The position numbers and the translations under genes were made by a program. A DNA stretch of 63,838 nucleotides, filler included, from Craspedostauros australis (Eukaryota), in assembly GCA_030167865.1 (NCBI GenBank). It is 17 parts of 17 records of this genome, joined end to end, with 100 filler letters (N's around TTAATTAATTAA, not from the genome) between each part and the next. Parts side by side here need not be neighbours in the genome. Positions count along the whole stretch, not along the records: positions 36,083 to 38,922 come from JALAGF010004669.1; 16 more parts are not named here. One strand, given 5' to 3'. How positions within the stretch are numbered: position 1 is the stretch's first letter; each line of letters starts with the position of its first letter. The notes below the pieces were generated by a model that was not told the DNA's origin, ran no database searches, and saw nothing but the letters and a program-made list of their open reading frames with translations. Positions 5,167 to 57,970 of the stretch are shown here, in pieces.

Positions 5167-8100
5167 CGCATTCGTCTCCCCCTCAAGCAACTTCATAACC
5201 TGCACGTATGGGGCAGCCCAGTCTATGTCCTTAACAAAGCACTGGCCGATGGACGAAAGATACCTCGATGGGAACCAAGAGGAGAAAGATACGTGAACAT
5301 GGGTCTATCCACGAAGCATGCTTCAACCGTACCTTTGGTCCTATCACCACGGACAGGTTCAATCACACCTCAGTTCCATGTTGTGTTCGATGACTGGTTC
5401 GCAACGATTGCCACCGACTTGAAGCAACTTCCAAGTTATCAATCGGAAGAATGGACTCGCATGTTCGGTGATACCACCTTTCAATACCCATTCGACGACG
5501 ACGATGTGGAATCAATGGAGCAGGACGACACCTTCGCGTCAGACACGCGAGACCACAACCGGTTACAACGAAACGACTACCACACTCCACCACCGGCAAC
5601 CGAAACGCGAAACCATCAAACCGTTCATGAAAGAGCGCCACAGGTATTGGCGAAAGGGTCGCAACCACTGACACAACAGACCCCGGATCTCATGAGTGAC
5701 ACTCTCGCCTCTCCAATACCAGTCTCAGAGGGAGCCAACAGGCAAATGTCTTCGACAGAGGGAGCTGCTAATGAGCAACCGGAACCTGATCCTATTATAG
5801 AGTCACCGGACCAGCGAACACTTCAACCGCAATTGGATTCACCTCGCCGAGAGTCACCAATCTCGGGACCGGCAACTCCATTACCACCTTCAGATTCAAC
5901 ACCAACCATGCCTAAGCTCGAATCAACGCCAGCAAGACCTCGAAGCACAAGAAGTCGCAAACAACCAAAGCGATTCACGTATGCGCGCATGGGAGGAAAA
6001 GCCGCATGGTTAGACGACGAAGATACCGATGACTACTACTTCTGTCCCGCAGTGGCTAGCATGGAAGAAAACGAACAGGAAGCAACAACCAGGGAGCTAC
6101 ACCCTGATTCTGCATCAATCATCACATTCTCACAAGCTGTCGTCGATTGCTTGCACACAATCGAACCCCTCCAACGTGAAGGCAGTGACTCTCTCTCTAT
6201 CGACTTACACCAATTCAAGGTGGATGCTAACTATCTACTGCGCAGACTTCGACTCCGATTCAACACTTTGAATCCGCAACCAACAAACGTCGTCCTTCCA
6301 ACATTCGCGCCAAAGGCGACTGAAACAAGAGAAGATAACATCAACATGGCCGATTGGTGGCAGCCGGATCCAGACGACATGGTCGAAGAAGGACCAACGC
6401 CATTCCAAGACATCTACGAGGACTTCTACTCGGACATGGAGAGACACTTCGAAGTCGACCTTCACTGCGAGATTCGTTGCGACGACCTCAGGAGACAAGC
6501 GACTGACTACGCTGTCGGCCAATTCGTCAACAGACTGAGCACTTTCATTCAAACCGGCATCATGAACCCCAGCTTCGATGCCTTTGACTACATGTCATCG
6601 GCCAAACCAGAGCCATGGTCGTATCAGGATCCAGAATATTTGATGATGAAGGGTTTTCTTCCTCCCGAATCCAGAATCAGTGGAACCACTTTCTTCAAAA
6701 GAACTCGCTCCGTGTGGAACGCCATCTCTGAAAATCATCACTATCGTCTCGCATTCGAACTACTCCGTCGCCAAGTTACGACCATCCGTCCAGGGCCATG
6801 GCCACAGCCAAGTGAGTTCGAAGTTGAGAAGTTTGTCCAAGGGATGATTGAAGCCAACACGGCACCTCTGAAGGAGGCTCCAGCAACGCGAGCGTCCGGT
6901 CAAAGCGGATCCACACTTGAAGTCGATCCATCATCCATCCTCGACACAGCAACATGCATTCCAGAGCACGCGTGGGCTAACATCGAACAACATGCCTATG
7001 CTGTCTCGATCATCGAGCCACAACGAGACTCAACAAACTTCCCAACATACGTTGATGGACACATGATGAGCTACTTCGCAACAGGCGGCGATTTGGATAT
7101 CGCCGAACGCTCATCCGTGTACAAGGCATCCAGCAATGACCCTGACACCCTTTCTTTCGACGAAGCGATTCGCGACGACAACAAGAATGAGTGGATGCAA
7201 GCAGCCGAAAAGGAAATCAAAGCACTTACCGAAAAGGGAACATGGGAAGAGATTCAAAAGGCCGACGTCGTCAACGATCGAATCTTCCCAGGGACCTGGG
7301 TCTTCCGTCGCAAGCGCTTGCCGGATGGTACGATTAAGAAGTACAAGGGTCGCTGGTGTTGCCGTGGAGATCTCATGAATGAAGATGCATCCACCTACGC
7401 GCCAGTCGTTGCCTGGTCATCCGTTCGCATCTTCTTGAGCACATCCATCGTAATGGGTTGGACGACTACATCCATCGACTTCACGAATGCCTTCGTGCAG
7501 GCCTCCATCCACAAGCCTGTGCATCTTCACCTTCCTCGCGGCTTCAAGTCAAGCAAGGGGCCCAACACCTGTCTTCGACTTCGCAAAAGTCTCTACGGAT
7601 TGACGATCGCCCCGCGCCTGTGGTACGAGCACCTCATCCGAGCTCTAATCACAGTCGGCTTCACAGCCTGCGNNNNNNNNCAATGCTTGTTCATCAAGCG
7701 CAACATCATGATTGTTCTCTACGTTGACGATGCAGGAATCGCCTCCAAGACCAAAAAGGATGCAGACGATTTCATTGCATCAATGCGTGAACTCGGGTTC
7801 GAGCTAACCCAGGAAGGCAGCTTCACTGAATTCCTGGGGATTGAGCTCTGCCGTGACCCGAAGGCGGATACTGTGCATCTTCGACAACCAGGGTTAATCA
7901 AAAAGGTCCTTGAGACAACAAAGATGTCGAACTGCAATCCATGCCCGGTACCTACTACCCAACTCGCACTCGGACAGTGCAAGNNGGTACCTACTACCCA
8001 ACTCGCACTCGGACAGTGCAAGGATGAACCAGCCATGAACGAGAAATGGAACTACCGCTCTGTCGTCGGTATGTTGCTCTACCTCACAACGAACACTCGC

Positions 8101-8757
8101 CCCGATCTCGCCTTCGCAGTCTCCCAAGTCGCTCGCTTCGGACACGATCCCCGCCGATCACATGCCAAAGCGGTCAAGCGCATCATGCGCTATCTCAAGC
8201 ACACTGAAACCATGGGCACCATCGTCCGCCCTACAGGGCAACTCGATCTCAAGTGCTACGTGGACGCTGACTTCGCAGGCCTTTACCAACGTGAGGACTG
8301 CAAAGATCCAGTGTCGGTGAAATCACGCACGGGATATCTCATCACATTGGGTGGATGCCCTCTCATTTGGAAGTCGAAACTCCAAACTGAGATCGCGTTN
8401 TCCACGATGGAGTCCGAGTACGCCGCTCTCTCCCTGGCAATGCGAACATTGATTCCCATCCAACAACTCATTCGCCAAGTGATTAACAACGCCGGCACCG
8501 AAATGCCGCTGCACACCAACCTCCAATGCACTGTCTTCGAGGACAACCAAGCCTGCATTTCCCTCGCCACCAATCATCAGCCGACCGCACGCACCAAACA
8601 CTTCTTAACCAAGTGGCACTTCTTTTGGTACTGGGTCAAGGCAGGCTTCATTTGCATCCAGCACATCGCCACGCCGGAGCAGCTTGCAGACATCTTTACC
8701 AAGGGATTGTCCATTGCGGTCTTCGAATACTTGCGGCTTAAAATCATGGGTTGGTAA
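5167..8757 (+). CDS. pol: Ty1/copia Pol, 5'-truncated: integrase C-terminal part, long linker, reverse transcriptase, RNase H
   Basis: Open from the scaffold edge. Motifs: HVWGSPVYVL and HVVFDDWF (integrase C-terminus), WVFRRK..KYKGRW, LRKSLYGL, YVDD (RT), YVDADFAG, FEDNQA and QLADIFTKGL (RNase H). The order IN-RT-RH is the copia order. Confidence 0.95.
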   Translation, partial: RIRLPLKQLHNLHVWGSPVYVLNKALADGRKIPRWEPRGERYVNMGLSTKHASTVPLVLSPRTGSITPQFHVVFDDWFATIATDLKQLPSYQSEEWTRMFGDTTFQYPFDDDDVESMEQDDTFASDTRDHNRLQRNDYHTPPPATETRNHQTVHERAPQVLAKGSQPLTQQTPDLMSDTLASPIPVSEGANRQMSSTEGAANEQPEPDPIIESPDQRTLQPQLDSPRRESPISGPATPLPPSDSTPTMPKLESTPARPRSTRSRKQPKRFTYARMGGKAAWLDDEDTDDYYFCPAVASMEENEQEATTRELHPDSASIITFSQAVVDCLHTIEPLQREGSDSLSIDLHQFKVDANYLLRRLRLRFNTLNPQPTNVVLPTFAPKATETREDNINMADWWQPDPDDMVEEGPTPFQDIYEDFYSDMERHFEVDLHCEIRCDDLRRQATDYAVGQFVNRLSTFIQTGIMNPSFDAFDYMSSAKPEPWSYQDPEYLMMKGFLPPESRISGTTFFKRTRSVWNAISENHHYRLAFELLRRQVTTIRPGPWPQPSEFEVEKFVQGMIEANTAPLKEAPATRASGQSGSTLEVDPSSILDTATCIPEHAWANIEQHAYAVSIIEPQRDSTNFPTYVDGHMMSYFATGGDLDIAERSSVYKASSNDPDTLSFDEAIRDDNKNEWMQAAEKEIKALTEKGTWEEIQKADVVNDRIFPGTWVFRRKRLPDGTIKKYKGRWCCRGDLMNEDASTYAPVVAWSSVRIFLSTSIVMGWTTTSIDFTNAFVQASIHKPVHLHLPRGFKSSKGPNTCLRLRKSLYGLTIAPRLWYEHLIRALITVGFTACXXXQCLFIKRNIMIVLYVDDAGIASKTKKDADDFIASMRELGFELTQEGSFTEFLGIELCRDPKADTVHLRQPGLIKKVLETTKMSNCNPCPVPTTQLALGQCKXVPTTQLALGQCKDEPAMNEKWNYRSVVGMLLYLTTNTRPDLAFAVSQVARFGHDPRRSHAKAVKRIMRYLKHTETMGTIVRPTGQLDLKCYVDADFAGLYQREDCKDPVSVKSRTGYLITLGGCPLIWKSKLQTEIAXSTMESEYAALSLAMRTLIPIQQLIRQVINNAGTEMPLHTNLQCTVFEDNQACISLATNHQPTARTKHFLTKWHFFWYWVKAGFICIQHIATPEQLADIFTKGLSIAVFEYLRLKIMGW

Positions 8758-8825
8758 CAACCAACAAACAACAACGAAGGATGAAGTTTTCATCGATACC
8801 ACAACTCCAATCACGACCCAACACT

Positions 8826-8834
8826 GAGAGGGAG
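8826..8834 (+). other. Polypurine tract of copia family X
   Basis: GAGAGGGAG lies immediately upstream of the LTR start AGTTGAGATT. Confidence 0.8.
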
Positions 8835-9521
8835 AGTTGAGATTCAATNNNNNNNNNNNNNNNNNNNNNNNNNNNNNNNNNNNNNNNNNNNNNNNNNNNN
8901 NNNNNNNNNNNNNNNNNNNNNACTTGATCGACCACCAAATCTTTTCTCCTCCTTTCTCTCCTCCATTCACGAATCCATCATGACTCAAACCTGACCGACC
9001 TGACTCACACCCACTTGGGAACTATATGCTCTTCAGATCCTCCTTACAACAACATACCTCGATTCCATCATGCTGATGACCACCACACTACCACCGTGGT
9101 CCCAACATGCGTATCCAACTTGCTTCAACTCAAGCAATGGAATCCGAGAGCCAGCTCCAACCACAGCCACTGCTTCATGGTCGTCACTACCATGAGCCAT
9201 GATCTACACTGCAGTGTATCTACGTGTGTGGAGAGCAAGGCGCTGTAATAACCGTATACCCTGTAGCACTGAACCAAGTACATCAGTGCAGGGTCTCGCC
9301 AAGTTGTGTGACATCGTTTCTTCACCCTATTAACACCACAAGCTAACTCATAATANNNNNNNNNNNNNNNNNNNNNNNNNNNNNNNNNNNNNNNNNNNNN
9401 NNNNNNNNNNNNNNNNNNNNNNNNNNNNCTCTCTTGAACTGCATCACACGGCTATCCCGAAGCCGGCAGATTCACGAGGCATTCTCCACCGATTCGCGAC
9501 GCCTACGCCCGAATCCTAACT
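8835..9521 (+). repeat. 3' LTR of copia family X (AGTTGAGATT...AATCCTAACT)
   Basis: Follows pol and the PPT. Homologous to 36083-36429 and 41473-42070, and all three copies end at CCTAACT. Confidence 0.9.
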
Positions 9522-20644: not shown

Positions 20645-23600
20645 TCAGAAGAGGACCCGTTGTGCTTGTTCTTTTCGTCTCGGTCCTTGTTGTTGTTTCG
20701 TGAGCATGTCGGACAGATTGGTATCCGATGGTTCATGTTGGACCACCAGGATGCCCGCGGCGATGCTTTCTCGGACGAAATGGTATGCGATGGCATTGGC
20801 TTTCTTCCGCAATTGTGATTCTGGTAGTGAGGAATTGTATACCACACTCTGATTGTCGACCCGTACGTCCGCCGGGCCATCCAGTGGAATGCCCATCATG
20901 CGAAGCTTGTATCTCATGCCGATGATGATTTCGGTTGCGACCTTGAGTGCTGTGAACTCGCTGCCGAATGTGGATGTCTCAATGCTGTTCTGTTTCTTGC
21001 TGTACCACAGTATCGGTGATGTATTCAAGAATAAAAGCACACCAGTGCGTGAACGTCGCGTGACGCGGTCACCTGCATGATCAGCATCAACAAAACATGT
21101 CATTTGAACCTCCTTCCCGCGCGGCGATGGCATGTCAGCAGGCAATTGCTCATGAGCATCAGGGTAGAAATCGTTCCAGTTGGGTTGCATCACAGGCGGT
21201 TTGTCAATGTATGCATCGTCAAAAACAAGGCGAGAACGATCGTGAGATTTGAGGTATGCGAACATATGAAAGAGAGCATGCAAGTGACCAATTCGTGGCG
21301 CAACACAGTACGATGCCATCATTGAGGTCTCGCAGCAAATGTCGATTCGTCCAAGCTCCACAGTCCAACGCAGTATACCAATGAGTTGCTGGTAGAATGT
21401 CATTTGTTCGGAGTCACACAATTGTGATCCATCCAATTCCGGTCGGTACTTGTTCGGTAGGACGCTGGGTGCTTTCGTCTTGAGCCTCAGATTGTGGTCG
21501 GTGAGATATTTGGTGACAATCTTGAGAGCGGACTTGATGTATTCTTGTGAGCCCATGCTCCATTTGGGGCGTGACGGATCGGCAGTGAGGTGAAATTGTG
21601 AGATGGTCGATCCAAGATATGTTGTAGGCGGGCCAATGGAACTCGGTTTGAGGAAAAAGTGTGAGTCAATCGCATCAAGGATGCGTCGTGGTTGTTTGGA
21701 TACAGCGAGAATGTCGTCGGTGTACACGAGCACGTATTCGTAATATTCTGACCCATCGCTCGCAACTGCAGGCTTCATCCAGACGTCGCTGTCGGCACGA
21801 CAGGATGTGAATCCCAACGAATCGCGCAGTGTCTCTGCTAAGTGTGCTCTCCATGCTGCTCCACTCGACTTCAATCCGTATAGGGCCCGACAAATGATTG
21901 CGATCTTCCCCTGGTCGGATCCAAACTCGGGACCGCATCGTGTGTATATGCGTTCTCGACATGGAGCATTGAGATATGCATTCTGAACATCTGCGGCAAG
22001 AATGTCCAGGTCATTGAGTGCGGCGATCAAGAACGCAATGCGTACGCTTTCGCGTGACACCACACTTGCGTATGTGATTGTTGCAGGTGCTTCCGTCATG
22101 TGTCCCCCAGCGACAAGTCGCGCCTTTCTTGTGAGGTCCACCTTGACGGCGAATATCATGTGGCATTCCATGTATTGGTAGCCCACAGGGTCGGGAGTGT
22201 CCAGTTCCTTGATATCAAACGCTGGTCGCACGGCCTTCATTTCTTTCGCAATAGCTTGTCGCCACAGATCCGTGCCTGTAGCCGCGTCGATTGCGAGTGC
22301 GTGGCGCACTGACGTAGGGAGCTCCACGCCGAACATCTCATTCTTTCGGACGTGTCGCCGCTTCGTTGCCATGATGATGCGTTGTCGTTTGCGTAGGGTG
22401 TGTGGTACCCACCACTTGAATGCGGGTTCGTTGACGAGCTTGTTGTCTGCAGCGTATTCGGCAACGCGTACGGGGTCGGCTTCTTTTGCGTCGCGTAGGT
22501 GGATCCAGGATGTGGACCCGTCCTTCCATCGGATGCAGAGCTTCCAGCCTTTTGTGGATTTGGAATGGGGAGAAGGAGAAGAAACAGAGGGCAAGCGTTT
22601 GTGGTCGATGATTTCATCCATCAGCATAGTTGTATATCCGTCGTCGTCAATGCGCGCGTAGATGTTCTCTGCGATTTGATTGGCGCTGAACACCTCGTGG
22701 TGTCCATCAATGAATTCGACTTCGTATTGGGCGGTGTCAAGCATAGGATTCGGATGAGAGCGGCCGATGAGGTTGCCTTCTGTGTCTCGTTTGCGTTGTT
22801 TGACTGTTCCATGTTGCATTTCGTCCCCTGTCGGCAGAATGACCTTGGTTGCAATGTATTTGTCGAAGGTGGCACTATCGACATCGTCTGGCTCCACGAT
22901 TGGTTCCAGTGGTTCGGTGTTCTGTAGGATGGCGATGTCTGCTGTAGTATCGTCAACGTCGTCGCCGTCGTCGTCAATTGTGATGCCCTCCATTCGTTGC
23001 TTCCATTTGGATCGAAGTGTGTCCATGAATTCATTGCATTTGTGTGTGATGACGTCGCTGTGTGTATCGTCGTGAGAGAGAGGCAAAACAGAGGATTTGG
23101 AGACAACAACGCCATTGGCAGTGAGGATGTACGAGCACATTGCATCACCAACAGAACGACTTGGTCCAAGGTATCGACCAAGCTGCTTGACGTTCATGGA
23201 TGCGTCTTGAATGTTGATATACCACACAAAGTCAAACCAGCCGAATTCAGCAATGTGAGAGATGTCAGCAGTGTCACCGGACAAGATGGTGGCCGGTGTC
23301 TCGCCGTGAAGATCATGAATGGCGAGTGCAGTGTGACTGCGTATCTCGGCACAGTACTCGAAGCAGTAGTCCCACAAATACTCTGGTGTATCGGTCGAGG
23401 TCATCAGCCGTCGATAGTGGCGCCGAAGCTCACGAATGGTTGCTTCTGCTTTGTTCTGATTGTGGATGTATGCTTCGATCGGTCGGATGGAAACTTGTGC
23501 TTTGTATAGTTTGCGACGGAATTCGCCAGCGACGAGCTCCTTGGCGTTATCAGGAATGATGGTGTGTGGGATGCCATGATCACGAAACAGTTCGTCGAGT

Positions 23601-24547
23601 GTGCGATGTGCTTCCTTACGTTCCGCCATTGGGTACACCCGGACCCAGTGAAACGGTGTACAGTAGATCATGGCGCATTTGTTGCCACGAATCGACTTGG
23701 TCTTCGCGTGCATGGTGTCGGCATAGAGTTGGGTGTTAAGTCGACGGTATCGTAGTTGCATGGCATATGGGTTGAGACGACGTGTGCCTGATGAATGTCG
23801 GAAGTCACGAATGGCCAGTTGTGTTGTTGCGTCAAGGGTACGTGATGCAGCTTCTGTCCCAATGCGCCAGCGTTGTGCGAGGATGTCGGGTGTGGTAGTC
23901 CCCTTTCGATTGGATGTGTGTGTGCCATGGATGTTGAGGGACGATATGGTTCGTTGTGATGAAAGAGACGCTCGGATGGCGTCTTCGTCGTCCCCTGACG
24001 ACCACTGGGATGGGTCCCATGTGGCCTCTTGTGTCATCATGACATGGATGCAGTCGCGATCGGATTGGATTTCTTGTTGTGTTGGCTTCCTCATGGGGAA
24101 GTAAGATACAGTGCCTTGCAATCGTAGAGGAATGTATAGGTCGTCGTCGGATGAGACCATAGAGTGGTCTTCCGGTTTCCGTTCGTGCTCTTTGATCATG
24201 AGCAGAGGAACATCATTCACGACTATACCCGCAGCCCTCATTTGATTGGGGCACAACAAAGGATGTTCAAGACGAGGAAAGTAGATCGATTGTGGAAAGA
24301 AAAGGATGAATGTTTGATATGTAATTGGATCATCGTATGCTATCGCAGCTGTGACGATTGGTGCATTATCGATGGACCCAAGTGAGTCGATAAAAGGGGT
24401 TGCAGTGACGGTTTGATCGGTCTGATGCACGATGTACGCAGTGTCACCAAAACAACAAGTATCCGCGTGTGAGTCGAGCTCTGCCCGTGGAGTATCAGAT
24501 GGCAGAGACATGCTGACGGACGTGAGCCGCCGAGTGCGACTTTGTGG
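20645..24547 (-). CDS. pol: CoDi-type Ty1/copia Pol: protease, integrase, chromodomain-like module, RT, RNase H
   Basis: ELDSHADTCC (protease); LYADTM...IIPDNA...QNKAEATIRE (integrase DDE); IIDHK...GWKLCIRWKDGSTSW (chromo-like); RKARLVAGGH, RALYGLKSSG and YTDD (RT); FVDADHAGD and VDNQSV (RNase H). Intact, and in frame with gag after a single TGA. Confidence 0.95.
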   Translation of the reverse strand, partial: PQSRTRRLTSVSMSLPSDTPRAELDSHADTCCFGDTAYIVHQTDQTVTATPFIDSLGSIDNAPIVTAAIAYDDPITYQTFILFFPQSIYFPRLEHPLLCPNQMRAAGIVVNDVPLLMIKEHERKPEDHSMVSSDDDLYIPLRLQGTVSYFPMRKPTQQEIQSDRDCIHVMMTQEATWDPSQWSSGDDEDAIRASLSSQRTISSLNIHGTHTSNRKGTTTPDILAQRWRIGTEAASRTLDATTQLAIRDFRHSSGTRRLNPYAMQLRYRRLNTQLYADTMHAKTKSIRGNKCAMIYCTPFHWVRVYPMAERKEAHRTLDELFRDHGIPHTIIPDNAKELVAGEFRRKLYKAQVSIRPIEAYIHNQNKAEATIRELRRHYRRLMTSTDTPEYLWDYCFEYCAEIRSHTALAIHDLHGETPATILSGDTADISHIAEFGWFDFVWYINIQDASMNVKQLGRYLGPSRSVGDAMCSYILTANGVVVSKSSVLPLSHDDTHSDVITHKCNEFMDTLRSKWKQRMEGITIDDDGDDVDDTTADIAILQNTEPLEPIVEPDDVDSATFDKYIATKVILPTGDEMQHGTVKQRKRDTEGNLIGRSHPNPMLDTAQYEVEFIDGHHEVFSANQIAENIYARIDDDGYTTMLMDEIIDHKRLPSVSSPSPHSKSTKGWKLCIRWKDGSTSWIHLRDAKEADPVRVAEYAADNKLVNEPAFKWWVPHTLRKRQRIIMATKRRHVRKNEMFGVELPTSVRHALAIDAATGTDLWRQAIAKEMKAVRPAFDIKELDTPDPVGYQYMECHMIFAVKVDLTRKARLVAGGHMTEAPATITYASVVSRESVRIAFLIAALNDLDILAADVQNAYLNAPCRERIYTRCGPEFGSDQGKIAIICRALYGLKSSGAAWRAHLAETLRDSLGFTSCRADSDVWMKPAVASDGSEYYEYVLVYTDDILAVSKQPRRILDAIDSHFFLKPSSIGPPTTYLGSTISQFHLTADPSRPKWSMGSQEYIKSALKIVTKYLTDHNLRLKTKAPSVLPNKYRPELDGSQLCDSEQMTFYQQLIGILRWTVELGRIDICCETSMMASYCVAPRIGHLHALFHMFAYLKSHDRSRLVFDDAYIDKPPVMQPNWNDFYPDAHEQLPADMPSPRGKEVQMTCFVDADHAGDRVTRRSRTGVLLFLNTSPILWYSKKQNSIETSTFGSEFTALKVATEIIIGMRYKLRMMGIPLDGPADVRVDNQSVVYNSSLPESQLRKKANAIAYHFVRESIAAGILVVQHEPSDTNLSDMLTKQQQGPRRKEQAQRVLF

Positions 24548-32251: not shown

Positions 32252-33931
32252 ATGGCTGACACCACTGAACAAGTCGATCACTTAAAGGTCACTCGTGCCC
32301 TTTTTGACCGATTCAACTGGCAATGGCTCGATGATTTCTCGAAACAGACACGGGTCAACACTGACGGTGAATTCTACGATTTCCTTGACGCCCCCGATGC
32401 TTACTTCGACCAGCTCTTTGATGCTTGGAAGCAGGGGTCATCCACCAGGCGCTTCGGGATGCAGCGGCTCCGCGCCTACGCCTTGGCGCATCCAGACTAC
32501 GACGCATGGTTTCCCACTCTCACGCGCAGCGACATTCGCAAGTTCGCTACCCCCGTTCCCAAGGACCCCGCTTTGCCTCCGGATACTGCGGGCGCTGCTG
32601 ACGGCAAGCCTACTGCGCGCACGGGCGCGAGCGAAGATGTCGCTGAACACCCTGGCCCTACGGGTGACACTCCCAGCGTGGAGACCCCACGTGTTGATCA
32701 GGGTATTGCCCCTACTCGCGACTTCCAGGCTGGCACTGGTACCACCGACAGTCCGTTCCAGGTTGGCGAGGACGGCGCGGAGGCCGCTGACTACATCACC
32801 GATTCAGGCCTTTCCTACTCCATGGCAAAGAACAACCCCGCTGTGCTCCAGCACTTTCACTACGTTGCTGTGCAGTCGCCCATCGAGCCTGACCGTGATT
32901 CGCTCGGCTTCTGGCAGCGCTGGGAGGTCAAGCTTGAGGTGGACGATCCCACCAGCGTCCTCAAGTGGTACACGCAGCTCCAGAGTGAGGCTGCCAACGT
33001 TGAGGCGCACATCTGCCCTCTCTCGGCTTTCAACCCCGCCTGCTCGGTCATTCCGAAAGGCGCTTCGAGAGCGCAAGTCTTCCGCACTGGTCGGTTGCTT
33101 GAGCAGAAGCTACAGCAATCCAGTGTGCTCGACCTGGGTCATCCATCCCTCAGCATGTTCTACGCTGGGAGCTTCGGGATCTTGCCTCATCGGCTCTCGT
33201 CCTTCGTGTTCTTACACCAGCTCCTGTCGGATGCGTACATGCGGGTCAAGAACGCTGTGAGCCAAGCGCCAGTGTACGGCGACTTCAACGACGTTGTCCA
33301 GTACGCCAACGCTCTCCTCGAGTTCCAACAGACAGAGGGAGTTGTACACCAGCGTGTGGTCACTGACGTGGAACTCACTCGTCGGTTCCTTGAAGGGCTC
33401 CGCTCGCAAGGCGTGCCTGTCGAGCACCACCTGACGTCTCTTGAACTGGTGCCTGGCGCTCGTCGAGTTCCACCTCATCTCCACGTGTCGACTTTGGCTC
33501 GCACCATCCGTGGGGACCCCACTGCGCCTGTCAAGCCTGTTGGGCATCGCGCGCAGACTCGGTCCTTCACGCGTGACAACCGCGGTGGCGGCCGTCGTGA
33601 GGAGCGCAAGAAGTCGGCTTTCTACCAGCCAGACAAGGACGCGTTCTGCGAGGCCTGCCGCCGGCCAGGGCACCGTTCTGGGACATGCTTGCCATGGGCG
33701 CGCGACCTCGCGTTCGCTGAGCTTCGCGAGGAGAAGCCTGACCTGGCCAAGAAGGTCCTGGCGGCGTACAAGGAGGCCTACTCCCGTGACCGTTCGCGCA
33801 CGGTTGCACGGGCCGTCAAGATGGTGCGTGAGGAATACGGCTCTGACGGCACCAGCGACGGTGATGGCGAGGCTTTCGACCGCACGGCCCAAATTCTCTT
33901 CCAGGATTTTGTGCTTGCCGGCCAGGAGTAG
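32252..33931 (+). CDS. gag: LTR-retrotransposon Gag with a CCHC zinc knuckle
   Basis: 559-aa ORF with CEACRRPGHRSGTC (CX2CX4HX4C). Homologous to the gag remnant of the decayed copia at about 28300-29300. A candidate slippery site lies just before the stop. Confidence 0.8.
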   Translation: MADTTEQVDHLKVTRALFDRFNWQWLDDFSKQTRVNTDGEFYDFLDAPDAYFDQLFDAWKQGSSTRRFGMQRLRAYALAHPDYDAWFPTLTRSDIRKFATPVPKDPALPPDTAGAADGKPTARTGASEDVAEHPGPTGDTPSVETPRVDQGIAPTRDFQAGTGTTDSPFQVGEDGAEAADYITDSGLSYSMAKNNPAVLQHFHYVAVQSPIEPDRDSLGFWQRWEVKLEVDDPTSVLKWYTQLQSEAANVEAHICPLSAFNPACSVIPKGASRAQVFRTGRLLEQKLQQSSVLDLGHPSLSMFYAGSFGILPHRLSSFVFLHQLLSDAYMRVKNAVSQAPVYGDFNDVVQYANALLEFQQTEGVVHQRVVTDVELTRRFLEGLRSQGVPVEHHLTSLELVPGARRVPPHLHVSTLARTIRGDPTAPVKPVGHRAQTRSFTRDNRGGGRREERKKSAFYQPDKDAFCEACRRPGHRSGTCLPWARDLAFAELREEKPDLAKKVLAAYKEAYSRDRSRTVARAVKMVREEYGSDGTSDGDGEAFDRTAQILFQDFVLAGQE

Positions 33932-34257
33932 ACCAACTCTCTGGTGAGCGGTACAAGGCCCCTGGTCATGATCGCGGGATGCATACAGGCACGCCTCTTG
34001 GCGATGCATCTCCGCTCGACGCTGNNNNNNNNNNNNNNNNNNNNNNNNNNNNNNNNNNNNNNNNNNNNTTAATTAATTAANNNNNNNNNNNNNNNNNNNN
34101 NNNNNNNNNNNNNNNNNNNNNNNNCCCAATCCGCAGACCAACAGCTCACGAGCTCACCCAAGCCGCGCACATCACGATTTGCGACAGGCACCGACGCCTC
34201 AGGCGATCGCACACACATGTCGACTTCGACAAAGTATTCCAGCATCTCCCACCACAA

Positions 34258-35982
34258 GTGGTGGCGAAGACCAAGGAAGCATCCACCCAGCTGGCCGACA
34301 CACCCATCGAGGCCGAGTCAAGACTCATCCCGAGGCAGTATCGAGCACAGCGAGCAGGTGCGCTGCAGCCACACCGAATCAAGGGAAGGGTGGACACAGA
34401 TCCATTTTTCTCCACGGTCCCATCCATCCGACAATACCGATGCATCCAACTCTTCACGCACAGCGATTCCAAGTTCATCTGGGCCAAACCGCTCCGCAGA
34501 GAGGCGATGGCGCCAGGGGCGCTGACGGAGTTCATTGTGCAGGTCGGGGCACCGGATCTACTCATCTCGGACAACTCACAGGTTCAGGCTGGGAAGGCAT
34601 GGAAGGCCATCACAACGCGCTACATGATCAAGCACTCCTTCACTGCTCCAATGAACCAGAACCAGAACCACGCAGAGCGAGCCATCGGGAACATCAAGCG
34701 ACACGCGTATCAGATGCTCTGGGCCGCGACTGCGCCACTCACATTTTGGTGTCACGCAGTGCAGCACGCTATCGACGTATGGAACTACACGGCCAAAGAA
34801 AGCATTCAGTGGCGCACTCCAATCGAGATGTTGCGAGGCAACACACCGGACATCTCCATGTTCCGATTCACGTTCTTTCAGCCAGTCTGGTATTTCGAGC
34901 CGATGACGAAGTTTCCGCACCACCCATTCAAGCCGGGGCATTTCTTGGGGATTGCATGGGACCATGGGGACCCTTTCACCTATCACATTTGGTCGCCGAA
35001 AGGCGAAGACGTAACCAAGGGCACGTCCCTGGTGCGCAACATCGTGAAACCACGAATCGCGGAAGACGCAAATGCGCCGCAAATTACCGACGAGGAAGTG
35101 CAACGAATTGCACGCCTCGATCTGATCCACTATCAAACCAATGGCGAATCGGGGCAGCGGGCGCGCACCAAGACTATGCCGGCGCAGCTTGCTCGACAGG
35201 TCCGAGAGGCCATCGACGCAATTGCCGTGCGGTCAGGGGCGGCAGCTCGAATCCCTGAAGCAGGACCACCGGAGGTCAGGGGCGTCGCGGTGAATGAAAA
35301 CAGCACTCCCAATGAAGACCGGTGGTTCGGTCAGCCGAATGTCATCGCAGACGACGATGACGACCGCGACAGCGGGCCCACGGGCGCAATATCCGACGAC
35401 GACGGGGACGATGATCGCTCCACTGGCAACATCTCGAACGAATCCGATGATGACGAACCGGTGAGGATCCCAGATCCACCCAAGCAGCGGATTCAGGGGC
35501 GTATCGGCACTCTGGCTGAGCGCGAGCATGACGAAATGTTCCAGAATCAGATCGCCAAGGACGAAACGAACGATCCAGCCATCACATCTGTCGCAGGCCA
35601 TTCATTCAGAGACGGACATCTTCATCTCAACGTGAAATGGGACAACGACGAGACGCAATGGTTCAGATACGACATCCTGAGGGCAGACCATCCCGAGATC
35701 GTAGCGAGATACATCATCGCAAACGAACCGAAACGGCATGACAGACACAATCGGCAGTCGACAACAATGCTGAAATGGGCAAAGCACGCCGTGCGNGCGA
35801 TCCGACGACGCATGAAACGCATCGAGCGCACGCACCAATTCACAATTGACGACGACGATAACATCTCCATTCTGAGGCGCATACGGCCAGGGAAGAAGAA
35901 ACCAAAGAAGGACTTCTTCGCCACCGTGTTTCAGTACGGAGTGGAAGTGCCGCGCAACATGAAGCACGCACTCCAACTCGAC
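34258..35982 (+). CDS. pol: CoDi-type copia Pol fragment: integrase core plus chromodomain-like module
   Basis: TDPFFS...LISDNS...QNQNHAERAIG (DDE core); chromo-like 'ITSVAGHSFRDGHLHLNVKWDNDETQW'; 'FQYGVEVPRNMKHALQLD' of the kind that precedes RT. Truncated by the scaffold edges. Confidence 0.9.
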
Positions 35983-36082
35983 NNNNNNNNNNNNNNNNNN
36001 NNNNNNNNNNNNNNNNNNNNNNNNNNTTAATTAATTAANNNNNNNNNNNNNNNNNNNNNNNNNNNNNNNNNNNNNNNNNNNN

Positions 36083-36429
36083 GCTTCATGACCGTCACCA
36101 CTGATTGCCATGACCTACACTGCAGTGTAACTACATGTGCGGAGAGCAAGATACTGTATTGATTGTCTATTCTGTTGCACTGAATCAAGTGCATCAGTGC
36201 AGGGTCTCGCCAAGTTGTGTGGCATCGTTTCTTCACCCTACTAACACCAACAAGCTAACTCATAATAACAGACAAGGATTAGCTACAAAGCACTCTACTA
36301 CTCATCGTTACAGTTATAACTCTTCAACCAGTACACCTCTCTTGAACTGCATCACACAGCTATCCCGAAGCCAGCAGATTCACAAGGCATTCTCCACCGA
36401 TTCGCGACGTCAACGCCCGAATCCTAACT
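36083..36429 (+). repeat. 5' LTR (partial) of copia family X
   Basis: Homologous to 9172-9521 and ends at AATCCTAACT. Followed by the PBS and gag. Confidence 0.9.
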
Positions 36430-36446
36430 GGTAGCTGCGAGTGGTT
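36429..36446 (+). other. Primer-binding site, probably for initiator tRNA-Met
   Basis: TGGTAGCTGCGAGTGGTT is complementary to a tRNA 3' end ...AACCACUCGCAGCUACCA. This implies an A1:U72 pair, a hallmark of eukaryotic initiator tRNA. Confidence 0.75.
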
Positions 36447-36858: not shown

Positions 36859-38922
36859 ATGGCGGAAGAGACAACCCCTGCCACGCTGGAAGTGCTGCAA
36901 GCGCAGCTCGAAGCGATCACGGTCGAGAACGCTCGCCTCACACAGGCGACGTTGGCGGCCGAAGCCGCTGCAAAAGCAGCAAACGCGGCTATAGCCACTG
37001 CCCAAGCAGCGGCGACAGCCACCACGACCCCAAGCCGTCCCGGTCTCGAGCGCAGCCGTTCTGCTGGCGACACACGAACCCGGACGGACCAGTCCTTCCT
37101 CAACGACAGCATCTTCGACATGGAAACTCCCATGCCCAAGAAGAGCAGAAAGTCAGAAGAGGACAGCGAAGACGACGACCACGACCTCTCTGGGAAACCA
37201 ACCGTTCCAATCATGGGAGGTATCCTCAAGCAAGGACGCAACTGGGTACCCTGGACCGCAGGCGCACCAAACGGACATTGGACCGGCCTCCAAGACGAGT
37301 CACACACCAGGTGGACCAACTCTCAACAACAGAGAATCCTCCATAACGGTGCTGACTCCACCAACCAGTCCAAGCGGGAGCAAGGACTCACCGACAAGTT
37401 CAAGAAGGGAGGGAACATCCAGCAGTTCATCCGCCTGGTGCGAAACCACATGGCCAGAACCGGACTCCTCACCATGGCGTACATCGCTGACGCCAACGCA
37501 GAGTCAGGGATGACTTGCGTCCTGGACTCACCAGCCGCCTTCACTCTTGAAGATGCCACCAAGCACTTCGACGAGTTCCATCTGAAGTGGGATCACTACG
37601 ACGTCCAGAACAACGAGACAGCCTCAGCGTTCTTCCGTGACAGTCTTGATCCAGTTCTCGAAGACCAACTCATGAACCGAATTGAGCCGAAGTTCCACGA
37701 TAACTTCATCACTCTCTTCGTTGAGTTCATGAACAGCAACTCGGCCAATTCCTTGGATGAACAAGACGCCCTCGCAGCCAAGATCCGCGAAGTCAACTGC
37801 AGACGTTTTCCAAACGAGAACGTTGGTCTCATGGCAGTCCACCTTCGTGCTCTTTGCAAGCGCCTCGACGACGCCGGTCGCTTCGACCTTCGTCTCCTCC
37901 GAACGATCCTCGATGCCTTCCTGCAGGCTGGAGGACAGATCCGGTCTGGTGAACAGTACCGACGTCCTCTCTATGTGATGAAGGATAGCCTTGAGGAAAT
38001 CCTCATGCGTCTCCCCGTCTTCACGTACGAGTACGCTCGCCCCCAGCTTGCCGCAAAAGACCTCACATGGATGGCAATCTGCAACAAGGCCGAGTTGTCG
38101 TACGAAAACGAAGTGCGCGGAAATCGCTGGCATGCCATCAGGCGTACCAGAGATAGCAACGTGCCCAAGTACTCGTACGCCAACAACGTCGTCCAGAATC
38201 CAAGCGCCAACGTTCTCGAGCAACACAAGGGTTTCTCCAAGAACGATGGAAAGAGAAACAACCTCAAGAAGCCCAAGGAACGCGACGCCAAACGCAACGC
38301 CGGTCAGGGCTGGTCGTCCAAAGCTCCCAAGCCCGGTGAGCCACAGCGCAAGCTTGTCAACGACAAGACTTTTATGTGGTGCGCCAAGTGCCGCCGCTGG
38401 CGTCTCTCGCACAACACCGAGAGTCACCAAGACAACTTCAAGTTCAAGGCGAAGTCTAAAAGCAAGCAAAGCCCCAAACAGGACAACCTCTCCATTGACA
38501 TGGCTGCGTGGACATGCTTCACAGCCGCCTCCAGTCAAGACGAAGACACCTGGTGGTCCCTCGTCTGGAACCTCTTCACCTCCTTCAACTACTTCGGTAG
38601 CATCGTTGGAATGGTTCTCCTCTTCGCCTCACTCCAAGTTATCACTATCGGAGTAGAGTATGGGTGGTACATCGCGGCAGCTAATGCCTGGATGCTAATC
38701 GCCGTAACTCTACTACTCCTCCACACAAGCGTCCCACGAAGACCCGACTCAATCAACTCTGCTGACCTAGTCTACAACAAGGCACGAGTCAAAGAACGAT
38801 ACAAGCAAGTTCACAAACGCCCAACACACTTCAATGGAGCTGTGAAACGCAGTCTCTACGATCTCGTGATGGAAAGTCTCGACCCAGATGGACCCAAACC
38901 CGTGAACGTGTCGAAAGGAAAC
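36859..38922 (+). CDS. gag: Gag(-Pol) of copia family X, 3'-truncated, with a Cys/His knuckle and a hydrophobic segment
   Basis: Long ORF downstream of the LTR and PBS. Contains the knuckle WCAKCRRWRLSHNTESH followed by two hydrophobic stretches (about 38551-38721). Confidence 0.85.
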
Positions 38923-39678
38923 NNNNNNNNNNNNNNNNNNNNNNNNNNNNNNNNNNNNNNNNNNNNTTAATTAATTAANNNNNNNNNNNNNNNNNNNNNN
39001 NNNNNNNNNNNNNNNNNNNNNNACGTGATTCATTATTTTTGATTCGACTCGATTTTGAGAGTATAGTCGAGTGAGTCTTGATACACGATTGAGATTCAGT
39101 CACTACAGTCATCGAACATGACGTAGGCACTGACATCATCGTATGACGTCAGTGGATCGGTCATTATGATCCTCGGAATCGAGATTATATCTTAGTCATG
39201 GTATGCTGACCTGTCTAGCCTAGCCGAATGCATCATCGAGCACGTGGCAGCAACATTTAGGATCCAGAACAACATCGTCAGGGGTGATGCATGCACCCCA
39301 CCGACGTAGACGGATCAATCCATATGTGATCAAACAGAGATCAAGACCAGACAAGATCAGNNNNNNNNNNNNNNNNNNNNNNGGTGGAGATAACACGAGA
39401 TATCGTGTAGATCAACATGCCATCTTGGGCAATGTTTTAGAAAAGACTGCGAGAGAAACCACGAGGTAATCGAGCAGCACGATAGCAACCGTGCAATAGG
39501 CACCATCTTTAGAATGATGAGATCATCATCTCATAATCCAAACTCAATCATCAATTGAACACAACCTATTAGAACAACAACAACCACCAAACATCTCCAA
39601 CTCCACCTGACGGATTGATCACCCTGGCGGCGTAGTAAGTGCAGTGTTTGGTGCCCTTTTCCTGTGTGTAATTGCTGA

Positions 39679-41472: not shown

Positions 41473-42070
41473 AGTTGAGATTCAATAAGGGACAGACTAT
41501 TACCAGACACGGTATCAACCCCGATGGGAGAAATTCTTGTTTTGGCGCGAAATCCTCAGACTTGATCGACCACCAAATCTTTTCTCCTCCTTTCTCTCCT
41601 CCATTCACGAATTCATCATGACTCAAACATGACCGACCTGACTCACATCTCACCTTGGGAACTATCCAATCTGCTTCAACTCAAGCAATGGAATCCGAGA
41701 GTGAACTCCAGCCACAGCCATTGCTTCATGACTGTCACTATTGAGTGTCATGATCTACACTGCAGTGTGTCTACGTGTGAGGAGAGCAAGGAACTGAAAT
41801 AATTGCCTACCCTCAAGCACTGAACCAAGTACATCAGCGCAGGGTCCCATCAAGCTGTGTGACATTGTTTCTTTACCCTACCAACACTATAAGCTAACTC
41901 ATAATAAACAGACAAGGATTAGCTACAAAGCACTCATCTACTCATCGTTACAGTAACACATCTTCAATCCCGTACACCTCTCTTGAACTGCATCACATGG
42001 CTATCTCGAAGCCAGCAGATTCACGAGGCATCCTCCACCGATTCGCGTCGACTGAGCCCGAATCCTAACT
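41473..42070 (+). mobile_element. Solo LTR of copia family X
   Basis: AGTTGAGATT...AATCCTAACT, flanked by CGTGG and AGTGG (a 5-bp TSD with one mismatch). Confidence 0.9.
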
Positions 42071-51481: not shown

Positions 51482-51791
51482 GCACTCACAGGTAGTGGCA
51501 CATACTTAAGTGCTGGCTTTGTCTCATGTTGATGTTATATGTGGTTCCCTGGATGATGTTGAGATGCAGATCCAGCCCCTTGGGGAGCAGANNNNNNNNN
51601 NNNNNNNNNNNNNNNNNNNNNNNNNNNNNNNNNNNTTAATTAATTAANNNNNNNNNNNNNNNNNNNNNNNNNNNNNNNNNNNNNNNNNNNNACTTCAGAT
51701 ATATGATCTACATGGCCAGACACCAACTACAATCCTGACTGGCGACACCACCGACATCTCACACATTTCAGAATTTGGGTGGTTCGACTTT

Positions 51792-54034
51792 GTGTGGTAC
51801 ATGAATCTCCAGGGAGCAAACATGAACACAAAACATCTTGGTCGCTACCTCGGTCCGTCGAAGGCCGTGGGTGAGGCGATGTGCTCGTACATTCTCACAT
51901 CTTCTGGCGCTGTTGTTTCTAAATCCTCTGTCATTCCTTTATCCGATGTCGACCTCAACAGTGAAGCAGTNAAACANCAACAATCCGACTTCATGTCCAA
52001 TCTACGAAANAAATGGAAAGATCGAATGGAAGGCATCAAGCCAGGGGACGACGGAGACGACGTCGACGACACAGCCGAAGACATTGCATTCCTGGAGCAG
52101 ACCACATCACTGGAACCTTTGATAGAGCCAGCTGACGCCGACGAAGACGCATATGATCGATATCTGTCCGCTCGAGTCAAGCTACCTGCGGGTGATGACA
52201 TCCAATTTGGTACTGTGAAGCGCCGAAAACGCGATGCGAGCGGGAAGCTGATTGGTCACTCACATTCAAATCCACTTCTTGACACNTCCATGTATGAGGT
52301 TGAATTTGTCGACGGGCACAGNGAAGTGTTCAATGCGAATCAGATCGCAGAAAATATTTACGCACGAACAGACGACGACGGATACACGACGCTCCTGATG
52401 GAGGACATCATTGACCACAAGCGACTTCCTACTGCAGCAACCGCTGATGACAAGACAGCTACGAAGACAACAAAGGGATGGAAGCTGTGTGTGTTATGGA
52501 AAGACGGATCTACATCATGGATTCATTTACGCGATGCCAAGGAGGCTGATCCTGTGAAGACAGCCGAATACGCAACCAACAACCAGCTCACCAATGAGCC
52601 TGCCTTTCGATGGTGGGTTCCATACACAATGAAGCGGCGCAACCGCATCCTGATGGCCAACCGCAAACAATACTTCCGACGAAATGAGAAATATGGTCTC
52701 GAACTACCGAAGAGCGTCCAACGTGCTCTTGCGATCGACGAGGAGACAGGAACCGACTTCTGGCGCAAAGCGTTAGAGAAAGAGATGAAGAACGTTCGAC
52801 CAGCTTTCGACATCAAGACCGAAGACACGAAGCCACCAGTCGGGCACACCTACATTGCATGTCACATGATCTTCGATATCAAAGTCGACCTCACACGGAA
52901 GGCGCGACTTGTGGCAGGCGGTCACATGACTGAAGCACCATCCAGCATAACATATGCCAGTGTGGTGACACGCGAAAGTGTGCGAATCGCATTCCTCTTG
53001 GCGGCGCTGAACGACCTCGATGTGCTTGCAGCAGATGTGATGAACGCATACCTCAACGCGCCATGCCGCGAACGCGTCTACACAACATGTGGACCTGAGT
53101 TCGGGGCAGACGCAGGCAAGGTAGCGATAATCTGTCGCGCACTCTATGGGCTCAAGTCAAGCGGCGCTGCCTGGAGGGCACACCTTGCAGAGACACTGCA
53201 GAACTCACTTGGATTCACCTCGTGTCGTGCAGACAGCGATGTTTGGATGAAGCCAGCAGTGACGAGCGATGGGTCTGAATATTACGAGTACATCCTCGTG
53301 TACACTGATGACATTCTGGCGATCTCCAAAGATCCCAGCGCGATACTCTCACACATTGGTTCTTACTTCTTTCTNAAACCCGCCTCGATCGGTCCACCAA
53401 CAACATACCTCGGCTCTACAATCGCTCCATTCCATCTCACAGCAGAACCGGAGCGGCCGAAGTGGAGTATGGGATCCCAGCGATACGTCCGAGAGGTCAC
53501 AAAGATGGCGCAGAAATGGCTTGAGGCCCGTGGCGGTAAATTCCGTACCAGCGCGAAAAGCGTAATACCAAACGGATACCGTCCAGAGCTTGACGCCACC
53601 GCCCTTTGTGATCCAGAGGAGATGAACTACTATCAACAGCTGATTGGGATCCTGAGGTGGATCGTCGAGTTGGGGCGGATCGACATATGCTGCGAGACAA
53701 GCATGATGTCTTCATACTGTGCTGCCCCCAGAACAGGGCATTTGCGTGTACTTTTCCATATGTTTGCCTATCTCAACTCACATGACCGATCACGTTTGGT
53801 GTTTGACGATGCATACGTCAAGAAGAACACCATTCCAACACCAGATTGGGCATCCTTCTACCCAGACGCACGCGAATTGATACCACATGATATGCCAAAA
53901 CCAAGAGGCAAAGAAGTGCAGATGACGTGTTTTGTTGATGCAGATCATGTAGGAGATCAATACACACGACGATCTCGAACAGGTGTTTTACTTTTCTTGA
54001 ATTCCTCACCCATCTTATGGTACAGCAAGAAGCA
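51792..54034 (+). CDS. pol: CoDi-type copia Pol fragment (integrase C-terminus, chromo-like module, RT, start of RNase H); close paralog of 20645-24547
   Basis: Colinear and highly similar to the 20645-24547 protein, for example GWKLCVLWKDGSTSWIHLRDAKEADPV, YTDD and FVDADH. Truncated at both scaffold edges. Confidence 0.95.
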
Positions 54035-55956
54035 NNNNNNNNNNNNNNNNNNNNNNNNNNNNNNNNNNNNNNNNNNNNTTAATTAATTAANNNNNNNNNN
54101 NNNNNNNNNNNNNNNNNNNNNNNNNNNNNNNNNNTATTGTGTGTTTGCTCTCGCTGATCCGTCTTCTACGTCACAGGGAACGTATTCCACGTCATGAAAA
54201 ACGAGTCACAACAGAGGAGACATCGTGTGACTCTTCCTCTGCAAGACAAGATGATGACTGCGCGCGGCAACAACAGAATGTGCCAGGCCAGGACAGCCAA
54301 CAACACTCCACGTTGACCAGTCTCACAATGGAAACCAGCAACATCCAATCGTCTTGGAATACGACGAAGCGCATTGACGAGCTGTCCGGCGCAGATGACA
54401 GTGCTTCGCCAATCACCACGACATCGTCTTCACCTTGGCTGCCAATCCTGTGAATGATGCATGCACAGCTCACCCAATCCACATTCTTGCCACTGTTACG
54501 GTTTCCATTTTTCTTCTCCTGTCTTGTGGTGCGCACATGATCAACGTGGTACGGTATGCATCTTGCGCAACCGTGCAGCACGATCCTCCTGCGAGAACGC
54601 TGAAGCGAGAAGGACGAAATCAACACATCCAAAAGTACCGATATGGATCATCTTCCTAATTTTGTCTTGGGTCTGAAACCTGCATCACATTTCCGAATTC
54701 TTTCGAGTAGTTTTCTTGGATCTTTCAAATCGAAGTGTGATTGACACAAAGGACTCAAAACTCGAACAACGATTGGATTGATTCAGCACACATGGTCTAA
54801 CAACAAGGGAACTCATGGTGAATACTAGCTGTGTGTCAATAGAGGTTGCAAGCTGATTGTACGAGATTGGCTGGTCATGACGCACATCAGGCACACAAGG
54901 AGAACAGCACAGCACAGCACAGTGCATCACCAGTCATTGACGCGCAGCACGGCGCAGCGCACCACAGAACGGCATGGACAACACAGGAGGATGGTCACAA
55001 GGTGCCTTGTACCATCCACTCTTTCCTTTGTGGGAAGGTCACAGTCATTCTACATTCTGTGTAAGCTATGACTACAAGCAGCAGAGAAACAGGAGGAACT
55101 CGTTTGAGATGTGCTGTGTTTCCTCTGTCGACTTTGTGAGGAGGATTTTATGCCTCCGCTGTGTCGTTGTGGAATGGATTCGCAATTCGGGACTCGCAAA
55201 GTGTTCTCATTGGTTGGCGCATTTGATAGATTTGTGGTTAATTTCCATGGCCCCCAACAGCAAAAACTGTTTGAGAACACCAAACACAACACAACAACAC
55301 GACAATGGAGAAACACAACAAAACTCCTCAAGCGCTGTCGAACGGCATCGACAGCACTGCCACAACCAGCGGTCCAGAGCAAGATCTGAGGGCATAGGCG
55401 GAACCGCCATGGAAAGTTTGGTGGATGAGCAAGAGCGGGATGTCATCTTGGCTTATTTGGGGCCGTGGCAGGCCCACGCGCACACGGCACGATTCGGAGG
55501 AAAATCTGCTCATTGGATATGGTCTCTGCCTGGAATGCACAGGCCATTCCAACGACCATGGATGGGCAAGACGTATCCAAGAGGATACGGTGAAGATGCA
55601 CACGAAGTTTNAGGGTCGGGGGTGGCCTGGAAGGTGCCCTCCGCAAGAAACAAGTGGNGGGCAAGAGTTTTTTGGCGGGTGGCGGCGGACACATCACGTG
55701 ACTTCGCTGGTGATGGGTGCCATTGAAAAGTCACCCATATCGCCAAGCCACCCATTCAAGATGTGTTAGAAATCAACTCAAGATGGCCATGGCGAAGTAT
55801 CCTGCGCAGATACGGTCTGGAAGAGGCTGCANNNNNNNNNNNNNNNNNNNNNNNNNNNNNNNNNNNNNNNNNNNNTTAATTAATTAANNNNNNNNNNNNN
55901 NNNNNNNNNNNNNNNNNNNNNNNNNNNNNNNGAAGTACGCGTTTGAAGAACTGACC

Positions 55957-57870: not shown

Positions 57871-57970
57871 NNNNNNNNNNNNNNNNNNNNNNNNNNNNNN
57901 NNNNNNNNNNNNNNTTAATTAATTAANNNNNNNNNNNNNNNNNNNNNNNNNNNNNNNNNNNNNNNNNNNN

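Follow-up and report, generated by a model that had tools for sequence, protein, structure and literature searches.

A predicted membrane module between nucleocapsid and protease in the Gag-Pol of diatom Ty1/copia elements

Copia-type retrotransposons are treated as forming soluble, non-enveloped particles confined to the cell, and the membrane proteins known from them are separate env-like ORFs of unproven function. The ENV-like proteins of Sireviruses and the env-like ORFs of Athila/Calypso (PMC3414828, PMC2844528) are poorly conserved accessory regions that are known mainly by their transmembrane (TM) segments, are patchily lost and have no proven function. In insect Ty3/gypsy elements of the MDG1 group, sORF2/FAST-like genes encode separate, single-pass, N-out proteins of 63-107 aa that are often myristoylated (10.1101/2025.03.14.642691). 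Ty1 retrosomes nucleate at the ER via SRP, even though Ty1 Gag acts as a soluble, lumenal protein in which neither a signal nor a TM domain can be discerned (PMC3945221). Diatoms carry the CoDi Ty1/copia elements, with long gag-pol ORFs and the domain order PR-IN-RT-RH (PMC2806351, PMC2774666).

Here we analyse an element of the alga Craspedostauros australis that shares this domain order and ORF structure with the CoDi elements, has species-named relatives in diatom hosts and contains a predicted membrane module in its Gag-Pol. The element lies in a window of 63,838 nucleotides (the whole stretch of DNA analysed, from assembly GCA_030167865.1). On the RT tree, the two-ORF RQVDD-type families found alongside it in this genome, which we take to be CoDiI, branch apart from the module-bearing lineage. 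Like the Sirevirus and Athila accessory regions, the module is poorly conserved in sequence and recognisable mainly by its hydrophobic segments. However, as the sequence-only reading of this DNA had pointed out, env-like proteins are normally encoded after pol, whereas the module is in frame inside Gag-Pol and ~70-80 nt separate the pol stop from the 3' LTR. We therefore rejected a Sirevirus/Athila env-like ORF as its identity (PMC3414828, PMC2844528). The signal sequence and ectodomain of such a gene have no counterpart in the module, in which the loop between helices has ~4 aa (median 26 in relatives) and sequons occur in 7/71 relatives.

Like the sORF2/FAST-like proteins (10.1101/2025.03.14.642691), the module is a short, predicted membrane segment of an env-less LTR element that combines an amphipathic motif with a basic patch beside the membrane; it differs in having two helices embedded in a copia polyprotein. 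With two helices internal to a polyprotein and no free small ORF, it was rejected as a sORF2/FAST gene. That class is recognised by amphipathic motifs and a minimum of 3 K/R in the 15 residues that follow the TM segment; here an amphipathic helix is present and helix 2 is followed by 2 K/R in 15 residues and 7 in 30. Class II viroporins of the hairpin type are released from polyproteins, oligomerise and conduct ions. Bdelloid ORF3 (PMC5408684) was likewise considered and rejected as the identity of the module. Ty1, in which a copia-type Gag and its RNA are brought to the ER co-translationally, offers a model for what the predicted helices of the diatom module, absent from Ty1 Gag, could hard-wire (PMC3945221). 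Among titles and the beginnings of abstracts in openly accessible literature, we found no description of a membrane segment within a diatom copia Gag-Pol, and the word "transmembrane" has 0 occurrences in the available portions of PMC2806351, PMC2774666, PMC8147415, PMC7017206 and 10.1101/2025.10.24.684338. A membrane-type module inside a copia Gag-Pol is thus apparently undescribed so far.

The element and its Gag-Pol frame

The window consists of contigs joined by N runs with a TTAATTAATTAA spacer, and neighbourhood across the gaps is therefore no evidence of true adjacency. The following parts of the element family were located.

36083..36429, + strand: 5' LTR without its beginning, which falls in an assembly gap; the remaining 3' part ends in ...AACT (from repeat families D1, D2 and D4, the LTR end motif and comparison of copy ends)
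36429..36446, + strand: primer-binding site, 18 nt complementary to the 3' end of tRNA-Met(CAT)
36859..38922, + strand: first 688 codons of the Gag-Pol ORF, with an ATG at 36859 and no stop until the gap at 38923 (tblastn, 70% identity to a full-length sister polyprotein)
37372..38124, + strand: capsid (CA) domains, aa 172-422 (VIA-align and Foldseek, Drosophila Copia capsid 8vvw_A)
5167..9521, + strand: second contig with the 3' half (IN end, RT, RNase H) of a member of this family and its 3' LTR at 8835-9521; this may or may not be the copy that holds the ORF at 36859 (tblastn, 67% identity to P0001 aa 1237-2424; LTR motifs)
41473..42070, + strand: solo LTR of the family of the ORF at 36859, 598 bp, AGTT...AACT, with 5-bp flanks agreeing at 4/5 positions

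The LTR copies (8835-9521, 36083-36429, 41473-42070) agree with the earlier assignment of this ORF to a family with AG...CT ends: they run AGTT...AACT, not the usual TG...CA that is typical of, though not strictly defining for, copia elements. Similar ends have been reported for the unrelated Zam clade (PMC3601003). Another solo LTR, L096, is flanked by a perfect 5-bp target duplication. The primer-binding site overlaps the final LTR base, and three genomic tRNA-Met(CAT) genes match its 18 nt (ARAGORN tRNA-Met calls and a complementarity check). The pairing tRNA carries an A1-U72 pair and is presumably of the initiator type.

The CA domains matched the Drosophila Copia capsid best in VIA-align (8vvw_A, Z 9.1, 182/184 residues aligned, rmsd 5.7). 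This was the sole chain with Z of at least 8, followed by Ty1-derived, PEG10 and PNMA2 capsids; Foldseek also ranked 8vvw_A first, at a score that is not significant (E 0.46). The sister copy P0001 is a single frame of 2,424 codons with PR, GAG-pre-integrase and RVT_2 in copia order (Pol_BBD 823-902, under the cut-off; gag_pre-integrs 963-1032; RVT_2 1934-2172, E 2.6e-38). By its PR-IN-RT-RH order, capsid fold, LTRs and primer site the element belongs to Ty1/copia (Pseudoviridae), and it is atypical in its LTR ends and its knuckle. Locus L033 (P0001 aa ~1320-1900) and L021 have ~600 residues between the integrase SH3-like region and RT, which include a stretch that is acidic, conserved in part and without a Pfam match; these extra residues account for a polyprotein of 2,400 aa, whereas most relatives have ~2,050. 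Other families have left retroelement fragments at 20648-24547 (- strand), 34081-36027, 51648-54083 and 55888-57915, and those at 20648-24547 and 51648-54083 have weak RT matches to P0001 (24-25% identity).

Downstream of CA, the window copy has the following features.

38377..38427, + strand: CX2CX6HX4H (CCHH) zinc-knuckle-like motif, aa 507-523 (dN/dS 0.07 within the subfamily; present in 101 of the best 150 Gag relatives)
38482..38514, + strand: degenerate lineage motif xN(L/F)...DPS(A/V)W, a candidate Gag/module cleavage region (motif comparison)
38551..38592, + strand: predicted Trp-rich amphipathic helix (hydrophobic moment 0.35-0.41, and 0.40 for aa ~559-578; AlphaFold2 helix)
38593..38655, + strand: predicted membrane helix 1, aa 579-599 (KD 2.19; 0/504 residues charged in 24 aligned copies; 18/21 columns variable)
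38665..38724, + strand: predicted membrane helix 2, aa 603-622 (KD 1.88; 1/456 residues charged in aligned copies)
38737..38826, + strand: basic tail past helix 2 (7 K/R in the 30 residues downstream of the helix)

The knuckle and both hydrophobic stretches named in the sequence-only reading do lie in one stop-free frame. That reading had placed the helices directly after the knuckle, but the first membrane-grade window begins ~55 residues past it; two stretches of about 20 aa followed by basic residues were found as described, except that the first quoted stretch, of 35 residues, comprises the amphipathic helix and then helix 1. In the window protein the knuckle has no Pfam match and departs from the canonical CCHC typical of Gag. 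The window family keeps the CCHH knuckle alone; most relatives, and the distant same-genome family L079, also have a canonical CCHC upstream, and zf-CCHC was detected in 57/78 aligned relatives, mostly alongside the CCHH motif.

Kyte-Doolittle (KD) hydropathy in 19-residue windows peaks at 2.19 (aa 581-599) and 1.88 (aa 603-621), and windows above 1.2 are confined to aa 571-626 of the 688 aa. These TM calls come from simple hydropathy scales, and the insertion score used below is our own approximation with its own position weighting, not a published predictor. AlphaFold2, with a 78-row alignment, predicted a helix-turn-helix of helices 562-601 and 603-622 with block pLDDT of 78-87. VIA matches to the predicted hairpin were generic two-helix structures, all with Z < 7. 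Foldseek against the PDB and viral models returned no match at E <= 0.001, and Pfam has no family for the module, its matches being sub-threshold and to unrelated membrane families. A homo-oligomer prediction with four module copies and no alignment scored 0.00, which we do not count as evidence. Within the helix segment, T is enriched at codon position 2 only (0.45 vs 0.28), with no enrichment at position 3.

Conservation, distribution and loss of the module

To follow the module through its own genome we used a DNA search whose query included the helices (47 matches) and a protein search with Gag alone (94 matches), both lower bounds, and examined 51 loci. The helix pair was in frame in 47/49 knuckle matches, the remaining 2 representing one decayed distant family. 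Families at 25-48% Gag identity, added by the Gag-only search, carry it too. The protease motif was reached in 26 loci, with the same open frame throughout in 22 and a break between knuckle and PR in 4. In sister copies, the protease follows 250-390 residues past the knuckle in one Gag-Pol frame; in the window itself it is out of sight because the ORF enters the assembly gap at 38923. Loci L077 and L078 (with G000:C3278) belong to a distant member with 30% Gag identity, have identical scores on three contigs and stop after helix 1; they are apparently a decayed, duplicated copy.

Purifying selection acts on the hydrophobic helices. In a comparison of 17 close copies (136 pairs, not independent of each other), the helices had a dN/dS of 0.12. 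The Gag core stood at 0.23, the knuckle was lower than the helices at 0.07 and the basic tail reached 0.30; dS was similar in helices (0.19) and Gag core (0.22). Between subfamilies, dN/dS was 0.09-0.29 in three comparisons, undefined through saturation in one and 0.56 in the most distant, where dS exceeds 1. The helix block had 25 synonymous and 15 replacement variants, the replacements being mostly swaps of hydrophobic residues, and across 24 aligned copies 33/40 helix columns vary, yet 1/960 residues is charged. The segment is therefore conserved by both measures that the sequence-only reading had proposed, in-frame retention and dN/dS, and a one-off insertion is ruled out by the 47/49 in-frame copies, by this selection and by presence across the lineage.

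Relatives outside the genome came from a full HMMER scan and an RT-region search, after word-index homolog searches with the Gag-to-protease region had given no matches. Scanning 1.84 billion representatives with Gag gave 566 relatives, of which the best 150 were used. The CCHH knuckle was present in 101 of these and at least 130 residues beyond it in 62; a KD window of at least 1.6 followed the knuckle in 52/62, compared with 0/55 Gag-core and 0/22 protease control windows. A second set was selected by RT-RH similarity alone (best 120 of 1,649, 97 scorable; the 23 left out were N-terminally truncated or had an atypical knuckle, and those inspected keep at least part of the module). In 97/97 of these relatives the knuckle-protease linker had at least 195 residues (median ~327). 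A segment scoring below 2 on our approximate insertion scale was present in 83/97 linkers, 0/92 Gags and 28/97 of the much longer Pols, and the linker segment scored beneath every Gag segment in 92/92 proteins. At the strict insertion score, proteins had two helices in 40/99 cases, one in 45 and none in 14. Both helices pass in 38/71 relatives at a threshold of 2.5 and in 54/71 at 3.5, and these counts fall short of a lineage-wide hairpin.

Motifs and charge recur along with hydrophobicity. A DPS(A/V)W-like motif occurs in 87/97 relatives (loose pattern) and APxxW in helix 2 in 72/97; the invariant Trp of helix 2 in the C. australis family appears to be the counterpart of this APxxW. On average across the lineage there are 7.9 K/R per 30 residues after helix 2, compared with 1.4 before helix 1 and 1.4 in the loop. 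A profile built from 93 outside modules scored the window module at 27.4 bits, against -2.7 for its reversal and -14.5 for a host multi-pass protein, and recognised 7/7 own-genome modules tested (10-64 bits), with reversed decoys never above zero. The module is found across elements merely ~50% identical in RT. Of the best 120 relatives, the species-named ones were all diatoms (6/6; Fragilaria, Mayamaea, Cylindrotheca and Chaetoceros). ESM Atlas searches with Gag gave unnamed clusters, mostly Bacillariophyta where the taxon is known; the module of one relative gave no usable named match there, a result that says nothing on absence or novelty.

As judged from these alignments and scores, the predicted module of ~250-350 residues between nucleocapsid and protease is a trait of an old lineage of single-ORF diatom Ty1/copia elements, beyond one family. 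The layout, in one frame, is CA, knuckle, DPS(A/V)W, amphipathic helix, helix 1, variable uncharged loop, helix 2 with APxxW, Pro-rich and Arg-rich tail, PR, IN, RT and RH. Linkers of 520-1,150 aa occur in P0204, P0210, P0262, P0223, P0224, P0263 and P0124, with extra sequence inserted ahead of the helices, and P0242, P0248, P0267 and P0269 have a second knuckle-like motif within the basic tail, 73-112 residues upstream of the protease.

As a control we took 20 loci of other GAG-pre-integrase matches in the genome and kept 15 (4 had no recognisable pol and 1 was the window family). These 15, mostly two-ORF copia elements, had no segment below 2 in Gag or before integrase, and the 8 placed on the RT tree form a branch separate from the module-bearing lineage. 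At 32252-33931 the window also holds the Gag of another copia type, one with two ORFs. Its C-terminus is like those of L134, L135, L138 and L147; no membrane segment was found past the knuckle in these four loci.

Within the single-ORF, frame-intact relatives, 4/26 Gag-selected proteins having both knuckle and protease lack the whole module and have helix-free linkers of 58-108 residues. Because their frames remain intact, the module is not essential. The Gag tree requires 3 changes to accommodate these four, for which monophyly was rejected (p-AU 0.0004); at least two independent events are therefore required, most simply losses. The RT-RH tree alone gives no proof of loss, since grouping the module-bearing rows together against module-less P0083 plus outgroup was not rejected (p-AU 0.41) and the root may lie on a module-less member. 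The predicted module is thus old, usually retained and dispensable.

Possible processing and roles of the module

Motifs resembling protease cleavage sites flank the module. Using a pattern chosen after inspecting the sequences (small/aliphatic residue, N/H, hydrophobic), which is degenerate in the window genome's own family, we found matches past the knuckle in 56/95 relatives (shuffled mean 22), before PR in 45/95 (24) and at the PR/IN junction in 61/95 (31), and chance levels in two control windows. The motif resembles the Ty1 cleavage sites TARAH*NVSTS and VPTIN*NVHTS (PMC6952103). These results suggest that the module is released from the polyprotein by cleavage, which stays an inference because the pattern is post hoc and degenerate in the window family.

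The earlier suggestion of a membrane-anchored Gag or Gag-Pol holds to the extent that an in-frame, conserved and selected membrane-type module lies between Gag and PR. Because cleavage-like motifs flank the module in relatives, they suggest that the precursor, not mature Gag, is what is anchored. Our leading reading, to which we give an even chance, is that the hairpin tethers the Gag-Pol precursor to an ER-type membrane with both ends cytosolic, a topology required for capsid and enzymes to reach the RNA, and that the protease later frees it. During translation of Gag-Pol, helix 1 would direct the ribosome and the element's own RNA to an ER-type membrane. The two helices would then insert as a hairpin, either fully spanning or re-entrant, leaving Gag and Pol in the cytosol, and the basic tail would set orientation and bind lipid head groups or RNA. 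Tethering would concentrate precursor and RNA and nucleate the capsid on the membrane; finally, the element protease would cut at xN(L/M)-type sites on either side, so that capsid and enzymes come free and a small membrane protein stays in place. In the literature we found no precedent for a copia capsid built from membrane-bound precursors.

Alternatively, the module may be an envelope substitute built into Gag-Pol, a possibility we consider unlikely. The protease-released hairpin would wrap, export or fuse particles, either by having them bud into the ER/perinuclear space or vesicles or by acting as a small fusogen or pore protein. Elements could then move from one algal cell to another, for instance when gametes meet, and would occasionally revert to purely intracellular forms. 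Its behaviour is that of an env-like accessory, with fast sequence turnover, conserved physical properties and at least two independent clean losses, and the flanking cleavage-like motifs would fit its release. The p7, 6K and 2B proteins, which sit between the structural and enzymatic parts of RNA-virus polyproteins, provide an analogy. Amphipathic helix, TM segment and polybasic stretch are also the parts of the sORF2/FAST fusogens of env-less Drosophila elements (10.1101/2025.03.14.642691), and Drosophila Copia capsids travel between cells (PMC11835246). Against this stand the short loop with few sequons noted above, which leaves no ectodomain, and the lack of a separate ORF, of an N-terminal myristoylation motif and, in the window copy, of more than 2 K/R in the 15 residues after helix 2. 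Moreover, the hosts are silica-walled unicells, which leave few routes for transfer from cell to cell.

Distinctly unlikely, in our view, is a device for stoichiometry, in which the hydrophobic segment pauses the ribosome or marks downstream Pol for ER-associated degradation and so yields an excess of Gag from a single ORF. Plant copia elements use splicing-coupled termination (PMC8892269). A crude scan of 12 copies, aimed at splice donors, slippery sites and poly(A) signals, gave no strong signal conserved across subfamilies; counted from the knuckle, weak words resembling donors recur around codons -17 and +64 to +77. The module is restricted to the single-ORF lineage and absent from the 15 control loci, most of which are two-ORF copia elements of other families; this is consistent with such a device. 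However, single-ORF elements without the module exist, and a degron would need neither the conserved APxxW nor the later basic motifs.

We judge it very unlikely that the hydrophobic helices do not insert and instead serve the immature capsid as a spacer for packing or oligomerisation, or offer a binding site to a host chaperone. Several families are only moderately hydrophobic (KD 1.6-1.8), polar residues (Gln, Asn, Ser, Thr) occur within the helices, and the 14/99 proteins without a membrane-grade helix at the strict threshold point the same way. By contrast, three observations argue for a membrane: charged residues are almost absent from 40 columns that are mostly variable, the flanks are asymmetric in charge, and in 92/92 proteins the linker scores beneath any Gag segment. 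Finally, a neutral by-product, whether a captured one-off fragment or hydrophobicity arising from a pyrimidine-rich nucleotide signal or an overlapping frame, is extremely improbable: a 334-codon antisense open frame (37624-38628) does overlap the start of the segment, but the module spans elements ~50% identical in RT, and an origin in nucleotide bias or the antisense frame was rejected by the parity of dS between helices and Gag core and by a T bias at codon position 2 without one at position 3.

Tethering of the precursor stays our leading account of a new polyprotein layout, a predicted integral membrane module within Gag-Pol that a broad, varied lineage of diatom elements has retained and a few branches have cleanly deleted. 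Natural pairs of elements with and without the module provide a test of how retroelements use membranes in assembly and of whether env-less elements exit from unicellular algae. Because the chief transposons of the two model diatom genomes are LTR elements, some of them stress-responsive (PMC2806351), the role of the module bears on diatom genome evolution.
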